Assembly: GCA_965204345.1 (NCBI GenBank)
Contig: OZ241981.1
Location: forward strand, 1,152,001-1,216,000
Direction: 5' to 3'
DNA: 64,000 nucleotides
Origin: Nitrosopumilus sp.
GTDB taxonomy: Archaea > Thermoproteota > Nitrososphaeria > Nitrososphaerales > Nitrosopumilaceae
Position 1 is the stretch's first letter; every line of letters begins with the position of its first letter. Below, one piece after another: positions 3,698 to 55,658 of this stretch. A program made the position numbers and the translations under genes. Under the pieces are notes generated by a model, which was given only the letters and a program-made list of their open reading frames with translations, was not told the DNA's origin and ran no database searches.

Positions 3698-4072
3698 TTG
3701 CAAGAAGAAAAAATTATGCAGTATTTTCAAGCAGTACAACAAGGAAAACAAAGAGCAAGCAAATCACAAATGAAGATGTTTGATGTGGCAGGATTTGGTA
3801 TGTTAACTTTGACTACTAAGAAAATTGATGGAAAATTTTATCCTGTTGGGGAGGAAGAATTTACCGCTGTTATAGATTCAGCAGATGGACATGTTGCAGT
3901 TATAGTAGATAAAGATGGGTTTACAAAGGCTCAATCAAAGGCTGTGGAAAAGGAAGAAGCCATCTCAATTTACAAAAAGCTCAGAGAAACAGGGATTTTA
4001 GAATACCCTGAAAAAGAGATTCAGATTTGGTCTGAAACTAGACGGACAATTCAAAACAATACCTCTGAATAA
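3698..4072 (+). CDS. Conserved hypothetical protein
   Basis: 124-aa ORF filling the gap, typical composition. Confidence 0.55.
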   Translation: MQEEKIMQYFQAVQQGKQRASKSQMKMFDVAGFGMLTLTTKKIDGKFYPVGEEEFTAVIDSADGHVAVIVDKDGFTKAQSKAVEKEEAISIYKKLRETGILEYPEKEIQIWSETRRTIQNNTSE

Positions 4073-4756
4073 TTATTTTGAATTAAGAATAATTTTGGTA
4101 CCAACATTTCCGCCTTTGACTGCTTTTTCAATGATTTTCGGGTTTGCTTTTAAAATTCGCGTTTTGATTTTTGATCGTTCGATAATTTTTAAAGCAACAA
4201 TATCCATCAAATCATAGCCTCCTGCAACAGAGTCTTCATGGATTAGCATGTTTTTCAAATTCTTCATATCAATTTCTTTGAATTTTTTGGCTTTTTTGAA
4301 TTTGTTTGGATCCATATCATAAACACCATCAACGTCAGTTGCATTCAAAAATTGTTCAGCTTGAATTTTTTCTGCAATTAGTGCAGCAGTACCATTAGTA
4401 CTTTGACCAGGATGAAGTCCTCCTGCTATCACAATTAATCCAGTATCAACTGCATGTCTAACCTCTTGTAGTGTAGTTGGAGGATGGGAATATGCCTTAT
4501 TCTTCAAAGCATAAATGAGAAGTTTGGCATTTAATCTTGAGATCTCAATTCCTAACTCATCAAGAGTGGATTCATCAGCACCAGAAGATCTTGCATGAGA
4601 AATATAATGTCGTGCAATAGTACCGCCACCTGCAATCACAATAGGTTGACAAACTTTACTTATTTTCACTAGGAATGCAGCATAATCTTTTAGAATTATG
4701 ACGTTATCCATTCCAAAAACACGTCCAGACAGTTTGATTACAATTCGTTTTTTCAT
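4073..4756 (-). CDS. pyrH: Uridylate kinase (archaeal type)
   Basis: [35 protein letters not shown] motifs. Confidence 0.92.
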
Positions 4757-5988
4757 TTTATACTACCAATGATTGATTTTGCGGCAATTTCAACTTTTTT
4801 TCTGTTCTTTTGATGAGTATATACTCTTAATATGTTCATAAACCCAGAAATAGCCGAAACCACGGGTATTTCAGAAATAGGCATCTCTTTTGCAGATAAT
4901 TTTCCATTTTCATTAGAGGTTAAGATTATCGATTTTGATTCATTTTTTGATGGTGCAAGAGGGATAGAGGGAGTAACAGAACTGTCTATAAAAATCTCAT
5001 TTTCGTCAATTTTAGACTTTTTTGAAAGATCAGATCTAAGTTCGTTTGTTTTAATATTTTTTAAATTCGTTTGATTTGTGATTATTCTTTCAAACACGCA
5101 TTTTAGTAATCTTCTATTTTGATAATCCTCTACAAACTGTCTTGCACGTTTTAATTTGGGGGACTTTGATGAGATTAAAGTTGATAGGACATATTCATCT
5201 GTAAGATTAACAAACTCGTTTGTGTCAAATGTAGTAAATCCAAATTCATCATCAGACAGTCTTAATGCTTCAATGAGCATTACTTCAGATGCACGTACAG
5301 TCTTATGAAAATAGACTGCTTTGAACATTTGATATCTAGAATGCATCATGGATTCAAAAGAATATAGTGCAGATCTTTCTAAAGCTAATTTTTTCTTATG
5401 TATGTTAAATGATTGTGTAATTCTCTTATGATCTACTTTTGCATGTTCTGCTCCGGTGAAATAGCCGTCTCTAAGTAAATAATCCATCATATCTGCACTC
5501 AGAGCTCCTGAAACAATCTCATTTAGATATTGGAATTTTGATTCTCCAAATGCAATTTTTGCCACTAGCTTCTTATCAAATCCGGTTTTAGATAGTGTAT
5601 CACCAATTTCAGAATTTAAGATTATTTTTTTGCCATAATCTTCATGTGAAATTTTTTTCTCTTGTATTATTTCTTCAAACAGATGAGAGAATGGTCCATG
5701 GCCAATATCATGCAATAATCCTGCCAAGCGTAAAATTTGAACGTCATCAGAATTTAAAAATTCTTTTTCATTTAATGCAAAACCAGCTTGACTAGCAATA
5801 TGCAATACTCCTAGAGAATGTTCAAATCTGCTATGTTGGGCCGCAGGATAAGTCAAATGAGCACCGGAAAGTTGTTTTATTCTTCTCAGTCTTTGAAAAA
5901 GGGGATTATCTATTATTGGAAGTTCGTAATCATATACACGAATAAAATCATGAATTGGATCAATGATATCTAGATAATTTTTTTTCAT
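4753..5988 (-). CDS. HD-domain phosphohydrolase (SAMHD1/YdhJ-like dNTPase)
   Basis: [50 protein letters not shown]. Confidence 0.85.
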
Positions 5989-29922: not shown

Positions 29923-29926
29923 AAAG

Positions 29927-30000
29927 TGGGCCTGATGAGATTTGAACTCATGATCACCGCCGTGTCGAGGCGGTATCCTAACCAGCTAGACTACAGGCCC
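29927..30000 (-). tRNA. tRNA-Val(GAC)
   Basis: Minus strand GGGCCTGTAGTCTAGCTGGTTAGGATACCGCC-TCGACAC-GGCGGTGATCATGAG-TTCAAAT-CTCATCAGGCCCA folds into a cloverleaf; CCA not encoded. Confidence 0.92.
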
Positions 30001-46567: not shown

Positions 46568-46629
46568 GTACCCTCAAGATTTACTAAAAATAACGACTAG
46601 GAATTTTTAACAGTAATTAAATTGTCTTA

Positions 46630-47520
46630 ATGGCAGTTAGAATGAGTTTTGAAAATTCAGAATAAGCTTTGCAGGAATTTCTTGATTCTTGTTATGCAAT
46701 GTCACATAGTTCTGCAATTGTTAATGGTTACAAAAATGCAATTATAGGTAAAACTAAGGGATTCAGAATCTTTCTTACAAAAAGATAAGATTTGATGAAA
46801 TTAAATTAGTGGTTAGAATAAAAAGCAAAAATTTTGGTGTGTGTCAGATTCTAAAAATTATGTGATTTTTTTAGATAAACCTGTACTAATGCCAAATTCT
46901 ATCAAGCAATTTTTCTATGCTATAAAGGGATATCTTATTCATTTGAGAGTTAACATATATTTAGATAAATGCATATAAGATATCAAACTTCCAGAGATTC
47001 TAAGAAAACGTAAAGAAGCAATAACAAAAAATATTTTGGTTAGAACTTTGGGAGTTGTATCATTTAAGCTTTGAGTTGTATTTCTTGTTGTAATATCATC
47101 AGGAATGAGAATTGGAGAAATTAGTGATCTCAAACTATCAGATATTGATTTTGCATGTACTCCAACTAAAATTAGAATCAGGGCAGAAACTACAAAGACA
47201 AGAGAAGCAAGAAAAATATTTCTTATATCAGAGACAGTAATTGCTCTAAAAGATTATCTCGGAAAATATTTTGATTGAAATGAAATACATGAAAATATTC
47301 ATCTTAAAAATAGAAATATTTTTAGTAGAGCGTCTATTAGAAAATATATTAGAAAAGAGAATATCAATGAACAGAAAGGCATCAGTAGATCTTTTAGAGA
47401 ATATACTTATGAGTAATTAAAGAATATTCCATTTTCATGCTCTAAGAGAGTTTTTCTATAGAATTTTAAGTAGTGTTGCAGACTTAAATTTTGCCCATGT
47501 TCTGATTAGACGATTCTGTT
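46630..47520 (+). pseudogene. Tyrosine recombinase/integrase pseudogene
   Basis: Box I SSGMRIGEISDLKLSDIDF (~47096-47152), IRAETTKTREAR, box II FHALR (47433-47447), FAHVL; many stops and frameshifts; catalytic Tyr region absent. Confidence 0.85.
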
Positions 47521-47793
47521 GTGTTCATGAAGGATATACATGAATCTGTTTGATCGCACAAGTTTTAATCAAGACATACAAACAGTACTGGTAAATTCCA
47601 GCGATCAGATCATCAAAATTTATCAGAACTGTCCGTTGCATTTACCGTGTTCATCTTAAAATTATCAGGATTTGCTTTGATGTGGTTGTTTTCTCTAGTT
47701 CCTTGATCAATGTCAGAGAAATAATCTCACTACACCAAATGAACATCAGTTTGAAAATCAGGAAACACCTCAAGATTCAACAATGTCTCAGAT

Positions 47794-48037
47794 TTATCTC
47801 TCATGCCTATCCCTCATGAACGCAACAGAATCGGCTGTCCATATGCGTCTGATGTGTCTTGCACTGACCTGCATGGTCCGGGCCAGAACTGCTACACCTG
47901 TGCCCTTTTGACGCTGCCATATGATGTATCTGATCTGATCTTCTTTTAGTCTGGTTCTCTTCATTATTCGTGATCGATATATGTGGTAATAATCCCTTGC
48001 ATGAAGCCTGAGCTTAGGCGGACATAATTTTCGTACA
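47794..48037 (-). mobile_element. Truncated IS481/ISA0963-like element: left end plus transposase N-terminal HTH
   Basis: Terminal 5'-TGTACGAAAATTATGTCCG from 48037; ORF 47964-47794 MKRTRLKEDQIRYIIWQRQKGTGVAVLARTMQVSARHIRRIW; locally higher GC; no DDE core or right end found. Confidence 0.6.
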
Positions 48038-48099
48038 ATAGAGATTTGTGTCCTCTAACATCAATCATAAATGCTGGAATAGGAAATATAGATGAAGAT

Positions 48100-48735
48100 T
48101 AATCTATATTCAATTCTCTCTTCTTTTTTAATATTATTTCATCAATTTTTGAAGTAGAGAGATCTGGTATTATTTTAATAAAAAAACTAAGTAATCATCT
48201 TGTGTCTGCAGAAATTAATTGTATAGATAGAATTGGAATTTTATTTTGTAATTTCTCTAGTTGATTTTCCATTTTCTCAAATTCTTTATGTTCTTCACTT
48301 TTGAAATCAGGAAACATTTGACAGCTTAGTTTCATTACATGCATGTCAATTTCTTTACTCTTTATTCTAGGTGTATAATCATTAGTTATCAATACATCAT
48401 TATGTTTTTTCGTTCTATGATAAACCCTAAAAATCTGTCATCGTTAAGATTAGAATCTAAACCAACTTAGTTCTAATCAATATCTGGTTCTGTGATATGT
48501 ACTGACAGTTTGACATTTTTTCTTAACTCTTTCTTAGTTATATTATAAGATTCTATCACGGATAGATTTTTTGTTGCTCTCTCAGATATTTTTTGATTAC
48601 CATCAGATTTTTTATTATCTAATTCTTTCAAAACTGTTGAACAAATAATCTCAACTTTATTCGAATCTAATTCTTTGCACCAATCTACACTCAAAATATC
48701 ATAATGCAAAAAAATATGTGTCTAGAGAGCATATT
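48100..48735 (-). pseudogene. PIN-domain (PIN_4/YlaK-like) ribonuclease pseudogene
   Basis: Stitched LDT/IFLHY...VDW...STVLKELDNKK...ERA...NDDRFL...LITNDYTPRIKS; internal stops and frameshifts; covers ORFs 48473-48709 and 48195-48392. Confidence 0.65.
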
Positions 48736-48863
48736 TTATCATAAAATTACTTATTTTTTATTGGATTATTGCTTTTCTCATGATCGGAAATGCGAGAAAA
48801 CTGCATATTTTGCCTAATTAGACGAATTTATCACTAACTATGTCTTAGTCAATACAAATCATC

Positions 48864-49598
48864 ATGAAAATATTAAAAAGGCTAGATCTCGTAAGATGGG
48901 ATATAATGCTTGAGGCAAGGGAGTATTCGTCAATAACTGTCGCACAACTTCTAGGTCGTCTACTAAATGACATTGAATCAAAAGCTGATCCAGGAGAACT
49001 TTTTGTAAGAGGCTCTTTAAATATTCCATTAACATATCCAAAAGTATCAATAATTGGTTCCAGAAAAGCATCCACACAAGGAATTGCAAATGCTCAAAAA
49101 ATTGCAAAGAAATTGATTGAAAATCAAGTAATTATTGTCAGTGGACTTGCTGAAGGTATTGATACTGCAGCACATGTAACAGCATCAAGCATGAATGGGA
49201 AAACTATTGCTGTAATAGGTACACCATTAGATAAAGTATATCCAAAAATAAATTATGAACTTCAACAAGAATTAGTGAAAAGTCATCTTGTAGTTTCACA
49301 ATTTCCAACAGGTTATCCAATTACTGGGAAAAATTTTGTAATACGAAACAGAACAATGGCACTTATTTCTGATGCTTCAGTAATTGTAGAAGCTGGAAAA
49401 ACAAGTGGGTCAAAACATCAAGGATGGGAAACTCTTAGAATGGGAAGACCGTTATTCATTTGGGAATCTGTTGTGAATGATAAAGAACTAGACTGGCCAA
49501 CAGAAATGATTGAGCATGGAGCAGTAGAATTATCTGATCCATCAGTCATACTTGAAGTACTACCAACACGTTTTGAAGTGATCGATGTGTTTCAATAA
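48864..49598 (+). CDS. DprA/Smf-like (SLOG) protein, core domain only; ShosA-like
   Basis: VSIIGSR, IVSGLAEGIDTAAH, TIAVIGTPLD..YP..N, VSQFP, F..RNR, VIVEAG..SGS; lacks the N- and C-terminal accessory domains of competence DprA. Confidence 0.88.
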   Translation: MKILKRLDLVRWDIMLEAREYSSITVAQLLGRLLNDIESKADPGELFVRGSLNIPLTYPKVSIIGSRKASTQGIANAQKIAKKLIENQVIIVSGLAEGIDTAAHVTASSMNGKTIAVIGTPLDKVYPKINYELQQELVKSHLVVSQFPTGYPITGKNFVIRNRTMALISDASVIVEAGKTSGSKHQGWETLRMGRPLFIWESVVNDKELDWPTEMIEHGAVELSDPSVILEVLPTRFEVIDVFQ

Positions 49599-49603
49599 TA
49601 ATT

Positions 49604-50260
49604 ATGGAAATTACTAATATAGAATTTGGGTCTCTTCTTACGTATTCTCCACGTGGAAGTACCGATGAAGAGGCTCGTTCAAGAACTTTCATGGCGACAT
49701 TGAAGAGTGATGGATGTTTAGAAAAAGAAAAAATCCCAATGACAGAATATATTGCACAGGGAATTAAGAATAATTTAGAAAAACTTCCTTTTGCTCATTT
49801 CTTTAAAGTAAATCCTATTCTTATTCCAACTCCAAGTAGTTCTCATACTAAACCAAATACACTTTGGGTTCCACAACGTTTAGCAATTGCTTTAGTGAAT
49901 AATGGTCTGGGAAAGAAAGTTAGTTCATGTCTTGAACGAACAAAGCCTTTACGTAAATCTCATACAAGCTCTAGTAAAGATAGGCCAAAAGCTCAAGAAC
50001 ATTATGACACAATGGCAGTTCAAAAAGAACTTTCTGAGCCAGATGAGATTTTATTAATAGATGATTTGATAACAAGAGGATCTACATTCGTTGGAGCTGC
50101 AATTAGATTGAGAGATGCATTCCCAAATGCCAATATTCGTGCATTTGCAGGGATAAAAACAATAAGTAAGTCGGAAAATTTTAAGAAAATTTATCATCCA
50201 TGTATAGGAGAAATCAATTTTAACGGTGAAAATTCATTCAATGATTGTATTGAAGAATAA
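49604..50260 (+). CDS. Type I phosphoribosyltransferase (ComF/ShosT-like)
   Basis: ILIPTPSS, CLERTKPLRKS, PRPP-binding loop ILLIDDLITRGSTF; no ComF zinc finger; 5 nt after the DprA-like gene. Confidence 0.82.
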   Translation: MEITNIEFGSLLTYSPRGSTDEEARSRTFMATLKSDGCLEKEKIPMTEYIAQGIKNNLEKLPFAHFFKVNPILIPTPSSSHTKPNTLWVPQRLAIALVNNGLGKKVSSCLERTKPLRKSHTSSSKDRPKAQEHYDTMAVQKELSEPDEILLIDDLITRGSTFVGAAIRLRDAFPNANIRAFAGIKTISKSENFKKIYHPCIGEINFNGENSFNDCIEE

Positions 50261-50525
50261 AATTTGATATTGTTCAGTCATAGAATTAGAGAACTAGATT
50301 GCAATTCATATAAACCATAGCTTGATGTCTACTTCCAGCAGTAAATCTATCAAAAATATTGCTTTTTGTGTCATCATTAGGCTCAAAAAATCACAAAATA
50401 GAAAAAAATAGAACTGGTCAACAAATGCAATCCTGTAATATACTAACATGTGATTGGAAAATCAGTTAATATAAAAAATATTCCAGTCAATTAGGGATAT
50501 AAGGAACTTTTTTCTGTAATTAACA

Positions 50526-50678
50526 ATGGCAAAATATGACGGTTTGTTAGGACAACCAATACTTGAAGTTGAAGAACCGGATAAAGAAGGCGGAATTACA
50601 TTTATCTTCAAAGATAACAGGTTTATGTTCATAAAAGCAGTTGATGGTAAGATTGAGACCGTATCAATTCCAGAATAG
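50526..50678 (+). CDS. 50-aa microprotein, paralog 1 (MAKYDGLLGQPILEVEEPDKEGGITFIFKDNRFMFIKAVDGKIETVSIPE)
   Basis: Hand-translated; TATA-like GATATAAG ~25-30 nt upstream; similar to the next ORF. Confidence 0.75.
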   Translation: MAKYDGLLGQPILEVEEPDKEGGITFIFKDNRFMFIKAVDGKIETVSIPE

Positions 50679-50687
50679 GTGATAAAA

Positions 50688-50834
50688 ATGGAAAAATTTG
50701 ACGCAATCAAAATGCTAGAACTTGTAAGAGTAGAAGATCCTGATTCGGATGGCGGATTGACTTTAATTTTTCAGGAAGACAAGACTTTGAAAATCAGGAT
50801 TGTGGATGGAAGGCTAGTTTCAGAATTTGTGTAA
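50688..50834 (+). CDS. 48-aa microprotein, paralog 2 (MEKFDAIKMLELVRVEDPDSDGGLTLIFQEDKTLKIRIVDGRLVSEFV)
   Basis: Hand-translated; SD-like GGTGA at 50678-50682; shares VE.PD..GG.T.IF...I..VDG with paralog 1. Confidence 0.75.
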   Translation: MEKFDAIKMLELVRVEDPDSDGGLTLIFQEDKTLKIRIVDGRLVSEFV

Positions 50835-54668: not shown

Positions 54669-55658
54669 ATGTTTAAGACAATATTTTTTAGTTTACAAAA
54701 AAAATTATTGTTACTAGTATTATCTGCTACATTAACCTCGATACTTATCACAACCATTCTATTCCTAAATTTTGATCATATTCAAATTTTTGAAATGCAA
54801 GAAAATATCATAGGAATTGGAATGGCATTGATGGTCGGACTAAGTGGCATTACATATTTTCTTTCAAAGCGCCTTTCTCAGCCAATAACAAAACTAAGTG
54901 ATGCAGCTAATAAAATAACACATGGAGACTTTAGTGTTAGAACCAATATAAAATCAAATGATGAAATTGGGCATCTTTCTTCATCCTTTGACTCGATGGC
55001 TCAAAAATTACAAGAGTCACTAATCGAGATTAAAGAACAAAAAGATGTCATAAAACAACAAGAAGATATCTTATTGCAGTTTTCTGAACAGAGTGAAAAG
55101 TGTTGTGTGGGGCTGATAGATATTATGAATTCAACGAAGATATGTGCAAATTTATCAGATTCACAAATAAGTGAATTTTATAAAATTTTCCTAAATTCTA
55201 TAGCATCCACAATCAGAAGATTTGAAGGCACCATTGTAAAAAATCTTGGGGACGGATTGCTTTTCTATTTTTCAATAAAGGATACGAAAGATACGGTCAC
55301 ATTAAAAAAATGTCTGAATTGCTGTCTGGCCTTGGGGGAAGAACACGGCAATATTTTAAAAGAATTAGAGAAACAGAATCTTCCATCACTAAACTATAGA
55401 ACTAGCGCAACATATGGAGGTGTGAGAATAGCTAAAACAACATCATCATCAACAAATGATATTTTTGGGGTTACTGTAAACAGATGTGCTAAAATCAATC
55501 GTAGTTCGCCTGCAAACGGAGTAATTATTGGCGAGGGCCTTTATGGTTTAGTAAAAGAATTTGAGGGATATTTTTTCAAAAAAGTTGAAAATGAATCAAT
55601 TTCTGCAGAATATGGATATACGGGATATGTAGTTTCTAAAAAAAATTATAATGATTAA
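54669..55658 (+). CDS. Membrane class III adenylate/guanylate cyclase with HAMP domain
   Basis: Two TMs, HAMP (PITKL...DEIGHLSSSFDSM), IDIMNST, VKNLGDGLL, DIFGVTVN. Confidence 0.85.
   Translation: MFKTIFFSLQKKLLLLVLSATLTSILITTILFLNFDHIQIFEMQENIIGIGMALMVGLSGITYFLSKRLSQPITKLSDAANKITHGDFSVRTNIKSNDEIGHLSSSFDSMAQKLQESLIEIKEQKDVIKQQEDILLQFSEQSEKCCVGLIDIMNSTKICANLSDSQISEFYKIFLNSIASTIRRFEGTIVKNLGDGLLFYFSIKDTKDTVTLKKCLNCCLALGEEHGNILKELEKQNLPSLNYRTSATYGGVRIAKTTSSSTNDIFGVTVNRCAKINRSSPANGVIIGEGLYGLVKEFEGYFFKKVENESISAEYGYTGYVVSKKNYND

Follow-up and report, generated by a model that had tools for sequence, protein, structure and literature searches.

In a 64,000-nt stretch of DNA from Nitrosopumilus sp. 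(contig OZ241981.1, positions 1,152,001 to 1,216,000, here called the window) two adjacent open reading frames (ORFs), 48864..49598 and 49604..50260, encode a DprA-like protein and a phosphoribosyltransferase (PRTase). We refer to them as gene A and gene T. An earlier note on this DNA had described a core-only DprA gene followed 5 nt later by a PRTase without the zinc finger of ComF, and both parts of this description were borne out. The ATG of gene T lies 5 nt (TAATT) past the stop codon of gene A, and gene T has no CxxC motif (its cysteines are at positions 38, 109, 200 and 215) and no zinc finger. The features of the pair are listed here, with PRPP standing for phosphoribosyl pyrophosphate and AF2 for AlphaFold2.

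48906..49598, forward strand: gene A, DprA-like (ShosA-type) Rossmann/SLOG core, putative antitoxin, 230 aa from the conserved start.
49604..50260, forward strand: gene T, stand-alone 218-aa PRTase (short ShosT-type), putative toxin, from the PADLOC ShosT match and the AF2 model.
50048..50086, forward strand: PRPP-binding loop of gene T, I149-LLIDDLITRGS-T161, with D153/D154 at 50060-50065.
48867..50274, forward strand: the two-gene cassette as unit of transfer, the part to which blastn similarity with the related locus L002 is confined.

Relatives were collected by a genome scan for gene T that covered one genome per species in 185,579 species. It yielded 191 candidate stretches, 174 of which encode a relative, and the locus counts and handles used below (L001 and so on) refer to the best 80 of these 174. 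Among the 80, 77 are archaeal and three bacterial. By record title, 46 are of the Nitrososphaeria/Thaumarchaeota type, 22 are Bathyarchaeia, 5 DPANN, 1 Methanosarcinales and 3 unassigned archaea. In 75 of the 80 loci gene T has gene A immediately upstream in the same orientation, and these are 75 of the 76 loci that have upstream sequence: four of the five loci lacking it end at a contig edge, and the fifth, L075, has 6 kb upstream and no gene A. The spacer between the two genes is -20 to +12 nt in 70 of the 75 pairs. No third gene was found to be conserved near the pair across taxa. Gene A is better conserved than gene T (mean pairwise identity 0.58 vs 0.50), and the pairwise identities of the two track together with a Spearman coefficient of 0.79, calculated over pairs that are not independent. 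The check on the ratio of nonsynonymous to synonymous rates (dN/dS) suggested in the earlier note gave values of 0.13-0.21 for both genes against six close relatives. Because of these values we take both genes to be real, and purifying selection inside a decaying island fits addiction or defence. We conclude that genes A and T form a tightly spaced, co-transferred unit under purifying selection.

The longest ORF of gene A (48864..49598, forward strand, TAA at 49596-49598) encodes 244 aa and begins at the start codon that the earlier note had given. This ORF exists, but it probably owes its start at that codon to the loss of a single nucleotide in the window. In an alignment of the upstream regions of close relatives with window positions 48864-48906, the family start falls on the position of the ATG at 48906, and four of the five relatives aligned have the upstream ATG in another frame; in L001, L002, L003 and L006 it meets a stop codon. 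The deletion (GATA-TAATG in the window vs GATAGTAATG) brings the upstream ATG into frame and adds 14 codons to gene A. Pfam DNA_processg_A matches residues 40-221 of the 244-aa ORF (3.5e-49), SLOG cluster4 reaches only 1.9e-4, under its cut-off, and the Pfam scan of gene A returned neither a SAM nor a C-terminal domain. The AF2 model has a predicted local distance difference test score (pLDDT) of 90.0; residues 1-20 are below 50 and disordered, and about 20 ordered residues precede the DprA core, which starts at residue 40 (Pfam, AF2). The best solved relative of gene A is S. pneumoniae DprA (phmmer 1.4e-31; Foldseek 3uqz, TM-score on the query (TMq) 0.76), and E. coli ShosA ranks after it (phmmer 1.2e-17; Foldseek 8zva, TMq 0.68). 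LOG proteins are distant structural matches (Foldseek E 1e-6 vs 5.9e-20 for DprA). R67 and R161 of gene A align with R139 and R234 of E. coli ShosA, which bind single-stranded DNA (ssDNA; roles from PMC12961424). Judged from these alignments, gene A is a DprA Rossmann core with two of the three predicted ssDNA-binding arginines kept.

Gene T is a single domain in its AF2 model (pLDDT 90.7). The Pfam PRTase_2 match is weak (E 0.0017, 18.4 bits vs a cut-off of 28.8), and the PRPP loop, ILLIDDLITRGST, is intact. All 30 aligned relatives share the residues D153, D154, T157 and G159, the loop motif is kept in 62 of 67 rows of the T family, and D153/D154 align with D331/D332 of the 424-aa E. coli ShosT. 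On this basis gene T keeps an intact PRPP-binding PRTase site. The N-terminal hydrolase/pyrophosphatase (PPase) domain of ShosT was not found in the single-domain gene T. A CxxC motif occurs in only 2 of the 67 family rows; the ComF-like YhgH of E. coli has four in its first 60 residues. The T family comprises 1,365 clusters at 50% identity with E <= 0.001 (1,005 at <= 1e-10), its best 150 representatives are 137-298 aa long, and a look-up of gene T in the Atlas gave unnamed or "phosphoribosyltransferase family" clusters of 217-230 aa.

The PADLOC calls given here are matches to individual models, taken outside the PADLOC system rules and thresholds. Gene A matched the ShosA model PDLC03961 (8.8e-69, 230 bits) and gene T the ShosT model PDLC03962 (5.4e-25, 86.6 bits). 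On the latter model the ComF-like control YhgH scored 27 bits, six other short T proteins, archaeal and bacterial, 58-77 bits, the PRTase of Burkholderia phage Mana 141 bits and the 424-aa T of E. coli phage P2_4C9 180 bits; because of these control scores we regard the ShosT match as informative. Of the E. coli-type models, the P2_4C9 pair reaches 973 bits on PDLC03012 and 765 bits on PDLC02997, gene T has no match to the ShosT model PDLC03012 at E <= 0.1, and gene A matches the ShosA model PDLC02997 weakly (65.9 bits). Both genes fall under the NCBIfam cut-offs for the competence proteins. For DprA, gene A scored 144.1 vs 191.15 on TIGR00732 and 122.2 vs 495 on NF008007, and for ComF, gene T scored 18.8 vs 233.55 on TIGR00201. 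E. coli-type ShosA (171) and other short A proteins (149-161) are likewise under the TIGR00732 cut-off. The ShosTA-type naming proposed in the earlier note is thus supported by the PADLOC models, and the pair fails the competence DprA/ComF cut-offs.

The pair lies at the chromosomal site of the window in L001, L004, L006, L026, L032 and L069, and close relatives of it lie at other sites in L002, L003 and L005. The 87.5% blastn similarity between L002 and the window is confined to 48867-50274, and the genomic context of L002 is another one. Between the window and L001, the synonymous divergence (dS) was 0.30 for gene A and 0.40 for gene T, while four genes in the flanks gave 0.91-1.28, so that the cassette postdates the separation of these two genomes. 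L026 and L032 carry a different allele at the same site, with a nonsynonymous divergence (dN) of 0.35-0.44 vs 0.08-0.09 for the flanks. A single clade of the site-sharing rows (window, L001, L006, L026, L032), which was chosen after the first tree had been seen, was rejected in the approximately unbiased test (p-AU 6e-90). L005 and L048 are two cassettes of different clades on one chromosome, OZ242274.1, about 615 kb apart. Decayed copies were seen as well: L075 has a truncated T alone, and L004, L050, L053 and L059 have broken spacing. The earlier note had asked whether the genes are housekeeping genes of the core genome of ammonia-oxidising archaea. A core gene would be a single copy at a fixed site that diverges with its flanks; the cassette has no fixed core locus, being found at different sites, in two copies in one genome and in decayed copies. 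We conclude that the cassette is mobile, that the demonstrable transfers are among Nitrosopumilus genomes, and that in Nitrosopumilus it is a 1.4-kb mobile cassette with a shared insertion hotspot.

The site at window 46570-50520, which L001, L004, L006, L026, L032 and L069 share, is bounded by a conserved 178-182-aa gene and two small tandem ORFs and holds two allele lineages of the cassette together with varying cargo (insertion sequence (IS), PIN-like gene, other genes). In L075 (3941-9473) the lone T is N-terminally cut (184 aa), has no gene A within 6 kb and lies between an AbiEii-like gene (5e-8) and a gene for a 686-aa OLD-family nuclease (1.5e-24). Judged by eye, this stretch seemed richer in G+C than is usual for a Nitrosopumilus genome.

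Short A-T pairs also occur in bacteria and a phage. One adjoins RepB on Allochromatium pALVIN01, one lies between RepA/ParA and YoeB/Phd on a 24-kb Pseudosulfitobacter plasmid, and one adjoins the integrase of the P2-like Burkholderia phage Mana. Such plasmid replication and partition genes and phage integrases are typical surroundings of addiction and defence modules. These pairs, whose genes overlap, have the same sizes (A 228-282 aa, T 208-225 aa) and gene order as the window pair and match the same PADLOC models. The plasmid T copies are 26-33% identical to gene T, and the Mana PRTase can be aligned with it at the PRPP loop only. The plasmid A proteins group with archaeal A proteins, with a support of 94 in the SH-like approximate likelihood-ratio test (SH-aLRT). 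Single neighbours of A-T pairs include Cas1, type I and type II restriction enzymes, an OLD nuclease and AbiEii-like genes.

ShosTA is defined in the available parts of bioRxiv 10.1101/2022.05.11.491447 and PMC9122126 as a DprA-like antitoxin with a PRTase toxin. In E. coli ShosTA (DprA-like ShosA of ~330 aa and ShosT of 424 aa; PDB 8ZVA-8ZVD, 9VZO), the ShosT mutant D331A/D332A loses toxicity, which depends on PRPP binding (PMC11961720, PMC12961424). A mutant of the PPase domain is only marginally less toxic (PMC11961720), so a bare PRTase could suffice for toxicity. The DprA-like ShosA forms dimers and binds both ssDNA and RecA; it neutralises ShosT although it does not bind the toxin (PMC11961720, PMC12961424). 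Two triggers have been proposed in these papers, namely phage ssDNA and the combination of an unstable ShosA with the shut-off of the host by T7 Gp0.7. The long E. coli relatives protect against phages (PMC9122126, in the part available; PMC11961720). The window pair shares with this system the order of a DprA-like gene followed by a PRTase gene, which is also that of the P2_4C9 pair (349/424 aa), as well as matches to the general PADLOC models PDLC03961 and PDLC03962, the acidic DD pair in the PRPP loop, by alignment R139 and R234 among the three arginines with which ShosA binds ssDNA, and carriage on mobile DNA. It differs in that ShosT has an N-terminal hydrolase/PPase domain (residues 1-164), which gene T lacks, and in that sequence similarity between the two is undetectable outside the PRPP loop.

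Taken together, we favour the view that genes A and T make up a mobile toxin-antitoxin cassette of two genes, complete in itself, which represents the ShosTA kind in a short, mainly archaeal form, and consider this probable, if with some reserve. Since the DD pair and two ssDNA arginines align with those of ShosTA, we infer that the pair follows the same logic as E. coli ShosTA. By analogy, T would phosphoribosylate some acceptor with PRPP, and this activity would upset nucleotide metabolism and DNA replication, so that the cell stops or dies. A, the first product of the same transcript, would bind ssDNA and offset the damage through the recombinase, which in the archaeal host would be RadA, not RecA as in E. 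coli. A virus that stops the host from expressing its genes, or that fills the cell with ssDNA, might cause A to be lost or titrated, whereupon T would act, giving abortive infection. Addiction could keep the cassette intact while its carrier island decays.

A number of results weigh against this assignment. For gene T, the top Foldseek match is the competence protein ComF of H. pylori (7p0h, E 2.1e-5, TMq 0.46), followed by E. coli ShosT (8zvc/8zvd, TMq 0.43/0.51), and all of these TM-scores are modest (0.43-0.51). No ShosT PDB chain was found at E <= 10 by phmmer or with the 30-member T family profile, and BLASTP and hhalign aligned gene T or its profile with the 424-aa ShosT at the PRPP loop only. 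The hhalign match of the T family profile covers 27 columns of ShosT, with a probability of 10%, vs 87 columns of YhgH, with a probability of 86%. Outside the PRPP loop, competence ComF is thus at least as near to gene T as the crystallised 424-aa ShosT is, and for this reason we treat toxicity, rescue and antiviral activity as predicted properties. From these alignments and models, gene T lies in the ComF/ShosT corner of the PRTase fold, yet in a separate short family, and is no truncated E. coli ShosT. The description of the pair in the earlier note as a minimal version of the bacterial system is accordingly one that we do not keep.

For gene A, the third ssDNA-binding arginine of ShosA, R261, is unaligned; ungapped extension places it on W188, near which gene A has the invariant R192 and R195. 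E. coli ShosA has a SAM domain and an extra C-terminal helix, both missing from gene A, and deletion of the SAM domain destabilises E. coli ShosA (PMC12961424). The ShosA model match is itself non-discriminating, because housekeeping E. coli Smf reaches 195 bits on PDLC03961. In a tree of gene A with E. coli Smf, E. coli-type ShosA and the A protein of Mana as outside rows, these rows sit on branches of 0.9-2.65, too long to place archaeal A nearer to ShosA or to housekeeping DprA.

Gene T had no match in 50,697 phage records. In a defence-island test on the 150 nearest neighbours from 73 loci (L004 was omitted as a near copy of L001), PADLOC matches at E <= 1e-5 were not enriched, with 24 of 150 vs 11 of 63 control ORFs taken from the window outside the island; many of the matches, in neighbours and controls alike, were to generic ATPases or of the cysteine desulfurase type. 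The trees of T and A follow the archaeal classes, with 4 label changes, the minimum possible. This suggests long residence in archaea and argues against a recent bacterial donor, so that of the horizontal acquisition proposed in the earlier note the transfers among Nitrosopumilus genomes stand and nothing points to a recent bacterial origin; trees of this kind also fit a long-resident cellular function. Finally, the literature matches listed hold no experimental study of an archaeal or short-form A-T pair.

One variant of this reading we put forward tentatively and think rather doubtful. The short cassette may be no orthologue of ShosTA but a separate, mainly archaeal family derived from the DprA-ComFC pair that handles ssDNA. 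A would then restrain T by direct contact, as in DprA-ComFC, viral ssDNA or the loss of A would free a PRPP-dependent toxin, and the cassette would work with RadA. If true, the cassette would be the first archaeal-type member with a mechanism of its own and would hint at the way in which competence proteins turned into immune proteins.

Among the rival explanations of the ShosTA-type reading, we judge it possible, though unlikely, that the cassette is a purely selfish addiction module, in which a toxic T and a neutralising A stabilise themselves and their carrier with no antiviral benefit. An intact cassette in a decayed island would be expected of such a module, as would the bacterial short pairs beside plasmid replication and partition genes and another toxin-antitoxin pair, and the lack of enrichment of defence-model matches among the neighbours points the same way. 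The phage protection given by the long E. coli relatives argues for a benefit (PMC11961720; PMC9122126, as far as the part available goes), as do the Cas1, restriction, OLD nuclease and AbiEii-like genes that stand singly beside A-T pairs. Addiction and defence are, moreover, compatible with each other.

The main rival explanation, which we consider quite unlikely, is a non-toxic pair for ssDNA handling: a DprA core and a ComF-like, PRPP- and ssDNA-binding protein that travel on mobile elements. The two would shield ssDNA that enters the cell or is being replicated and load this ssDNA onto the recombinase, like DprA and ComFC during transformation in bacteria. The two competence proteins have the same two folds as A and T; both handle ssDNA, and binding between ComFC and DprA is reported for C. 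jejuni and S. pneumoniae, according to the part available of PMC9005727. That H. pylori ComF is the top structural match of T, that more of YhgH than of ShosT aligns with the T profile, and that competence DprA is the closest solved relative of A all speak for this explanation. It is harder to reconcile with T lacking the four-cysteine zinc finger of competence ComF, with both genes falling under the competence cut-offs, and with a ShosT model score for T three times that of YhgH. In addition, competence DprA and ComFC are separate core genes, whereas the genes studied here are joined in a single overlapping two-gene cassette, which moves on its own and which some genomes carry twice or in a decayed state.

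A housekeeping role in nucleotide metabolism, with a salvage PRTase and a LOG/SLOG-type nucleotide-processing partner, is very improbable: the weak similarity of T to PRTases for xanthine, adenine and orotate (E 0.04-0.09 and E 0.17-0.6), the SLOG-fold match of A and the LOG proteins among its distant structural matches would suit it, but the salvage-enzyme matches are far under the NCBIfam cut-offs, salvage PRTases are structurally weaker (Foldseek TMq 0.28-0.39), A is far nearer to DprA than to LOG, and the cassette varies in location and sits in a mobile island.

Two further identities were considered and rejected. PsyrTA (RqlHI), like the A-T pair, combines a DprA-like antitoxin with a PRTase-bearing toxin, and the PsyrA model matches gene A at 3.6e-24; PsyrT is long (a 689-position model with the PRTase at its end), and the short gene T covers only positions 600-680 of it (E 0.0052). 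For a retron with a PRTase effector, the PRTase_III-A model reached gene T at E 0.0056 only, Pfam gave no reverse transcriptase match in the 11 island ORF pieces scanned (of 40 stop-to-stop ORFs), and Rfam found only a tRNA.

The earlier note knew of no characterised archaeal example, and the implied novelty in archaea does not hold, as surveys already place ShosTA among the commonest archaeal systems. According to the available part of bioRxiv 10.1101/2024.10.26.620412 it occurs in over 25 of 45 archaeal taxa, ranks with the 8 systems seen most often in archaea and is commoner there than in bacteria. An enrichment in Asgard archaea is stated in the part available of PMC11291487, and a haloarchaeal preprint links ShosTA to virus resistance by correlation only, in the portion accessible (bioRxiv 10.1101/2025.11.08.687337). 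The main text of a survey of 7,747 archaeal genomes (PMC12988326) does not mention ShosTA. The short form is thus common in archaea and already caught by defence-finding software, which makes the pair a good but unsurprising candidate, and the gain is incremental because both the kind of system and its presence in archaea are already in the literature and in detection tools. Of modest interest is that this short form makes up a distinct family, mostly archaeal, which lies nearer to ComF than to the studied toxin.

Ammonia-oxidising archaea are key players in the marine nitrogen cycle and, to our knowledge, little is known of their resistance to viruses. The cassette is a compact, intact and mobile candidate for such resistance. 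It also bears on whether a bare PRTase without a PPase domain is enough for toxicity, and on whether a DprA core without a SAM domain can be an antitoxin in cells that use RadA and not RecA.

Between the core gene hyp_46019 and the small ORF at 50526 everything is broken except genes A and T. The remnants are the following.

46627..47483, forward strand: tyrosine integrase remnants at the left edge of the island (Pfam Phage_integrase 3.9e-8 on 47075-47278).
47508..48054, no strand assigned: possible IS or miniature inverted-repeat transposable element (MITE) remnant, a 36-nt inverted repeat with a helix-turn-helix (HTH)-like fragment, weakly supported.
48057..48742, reverse strand: PIN-like pseudogene (Pfam PIN_4 3.2e-4, 21.4 bits vs a cut-off of 21.9).
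50318..50476, reverse strand: truncated Zn-ribbon ORF remnant with the N-terminal half kept (matches residues 6-58 of a 121-aa ORF of L026).

The earlier note had seen the pair as the only intact genes among a broken integrase, IS and PIN gene, which we confirm for the integrase and the PIN gene. The integrase pieces lie in frames +1, +2 and +3 over 46627-47483 (tblastn with the integrases of L032 and L001). The PIN-like gene is broken by a switch between frames -1 and -3 at about 48404-48425, and its orthologue is intact (234 aa) in L001, the nearest relative of the window. The IS amounts to weak HTH matches (E 0.02-0.05) in the fragment 47794-48054 on the minus strand and the 36-nt inverted repeat 47508-47543 / 47801-47836, whose arms are 86% complementary and 257 nt apart. 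The repeat lies in a slightly G+C-richer part of the island and may represent the ends of a small IS or MITE. The Zn-ribbon ORF is intact in L001, L026 and L032. No convincing direct repeat that could mark attachment sites flanks the island; the sole tRNA in the window is at 29926-30000, and Rfam found nothing else window-wide.

Some neighbours of the cassette recur. Candidate pairs of the nucleotidyltransferase/HEPN type (MNT/HEPN; PADLOC PDC-M05A/B) adjoin it in L008, L025, L038, L066 and L079, which belong to different lineages. A 451-aa HD-domain protein with a weak dGTPase match (1.5e-6), paired with a protein of 172 aa whose match to the DarG model (9.2e-12) falls in the C-terminal part of that model, is found in L006 (1728-3643, forward strand) and also in L024 and L048. 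L026 encodes, just upstream of its A-T pair (4069-5004, forward strand), a 311-aa protein with a C-terminal PRTase domain (PsyrT 7e-12, ShosT 1.2e-11) and a possibly TPR-like N-terminus, and thus has a second PRTase at the locus.

The tandem small ORFs at 50526-50678 and 50679-50834 (forward strand; 50 and 51 aa) are mutual paralogues (33-44% identity, cross matches) without a family match, and they are kept at the right edge of the hotspot in relatives. Outside the island, a gene at 54669-55658 (forward strand) encodes a 329-aa protein, for which ordinary signalling is a possible role, with N-terminal hydrophobic stretches and a C-terminal nucleotide cyclase-like region that matches Pycsar cyclase models (PycC 1.7e-14).

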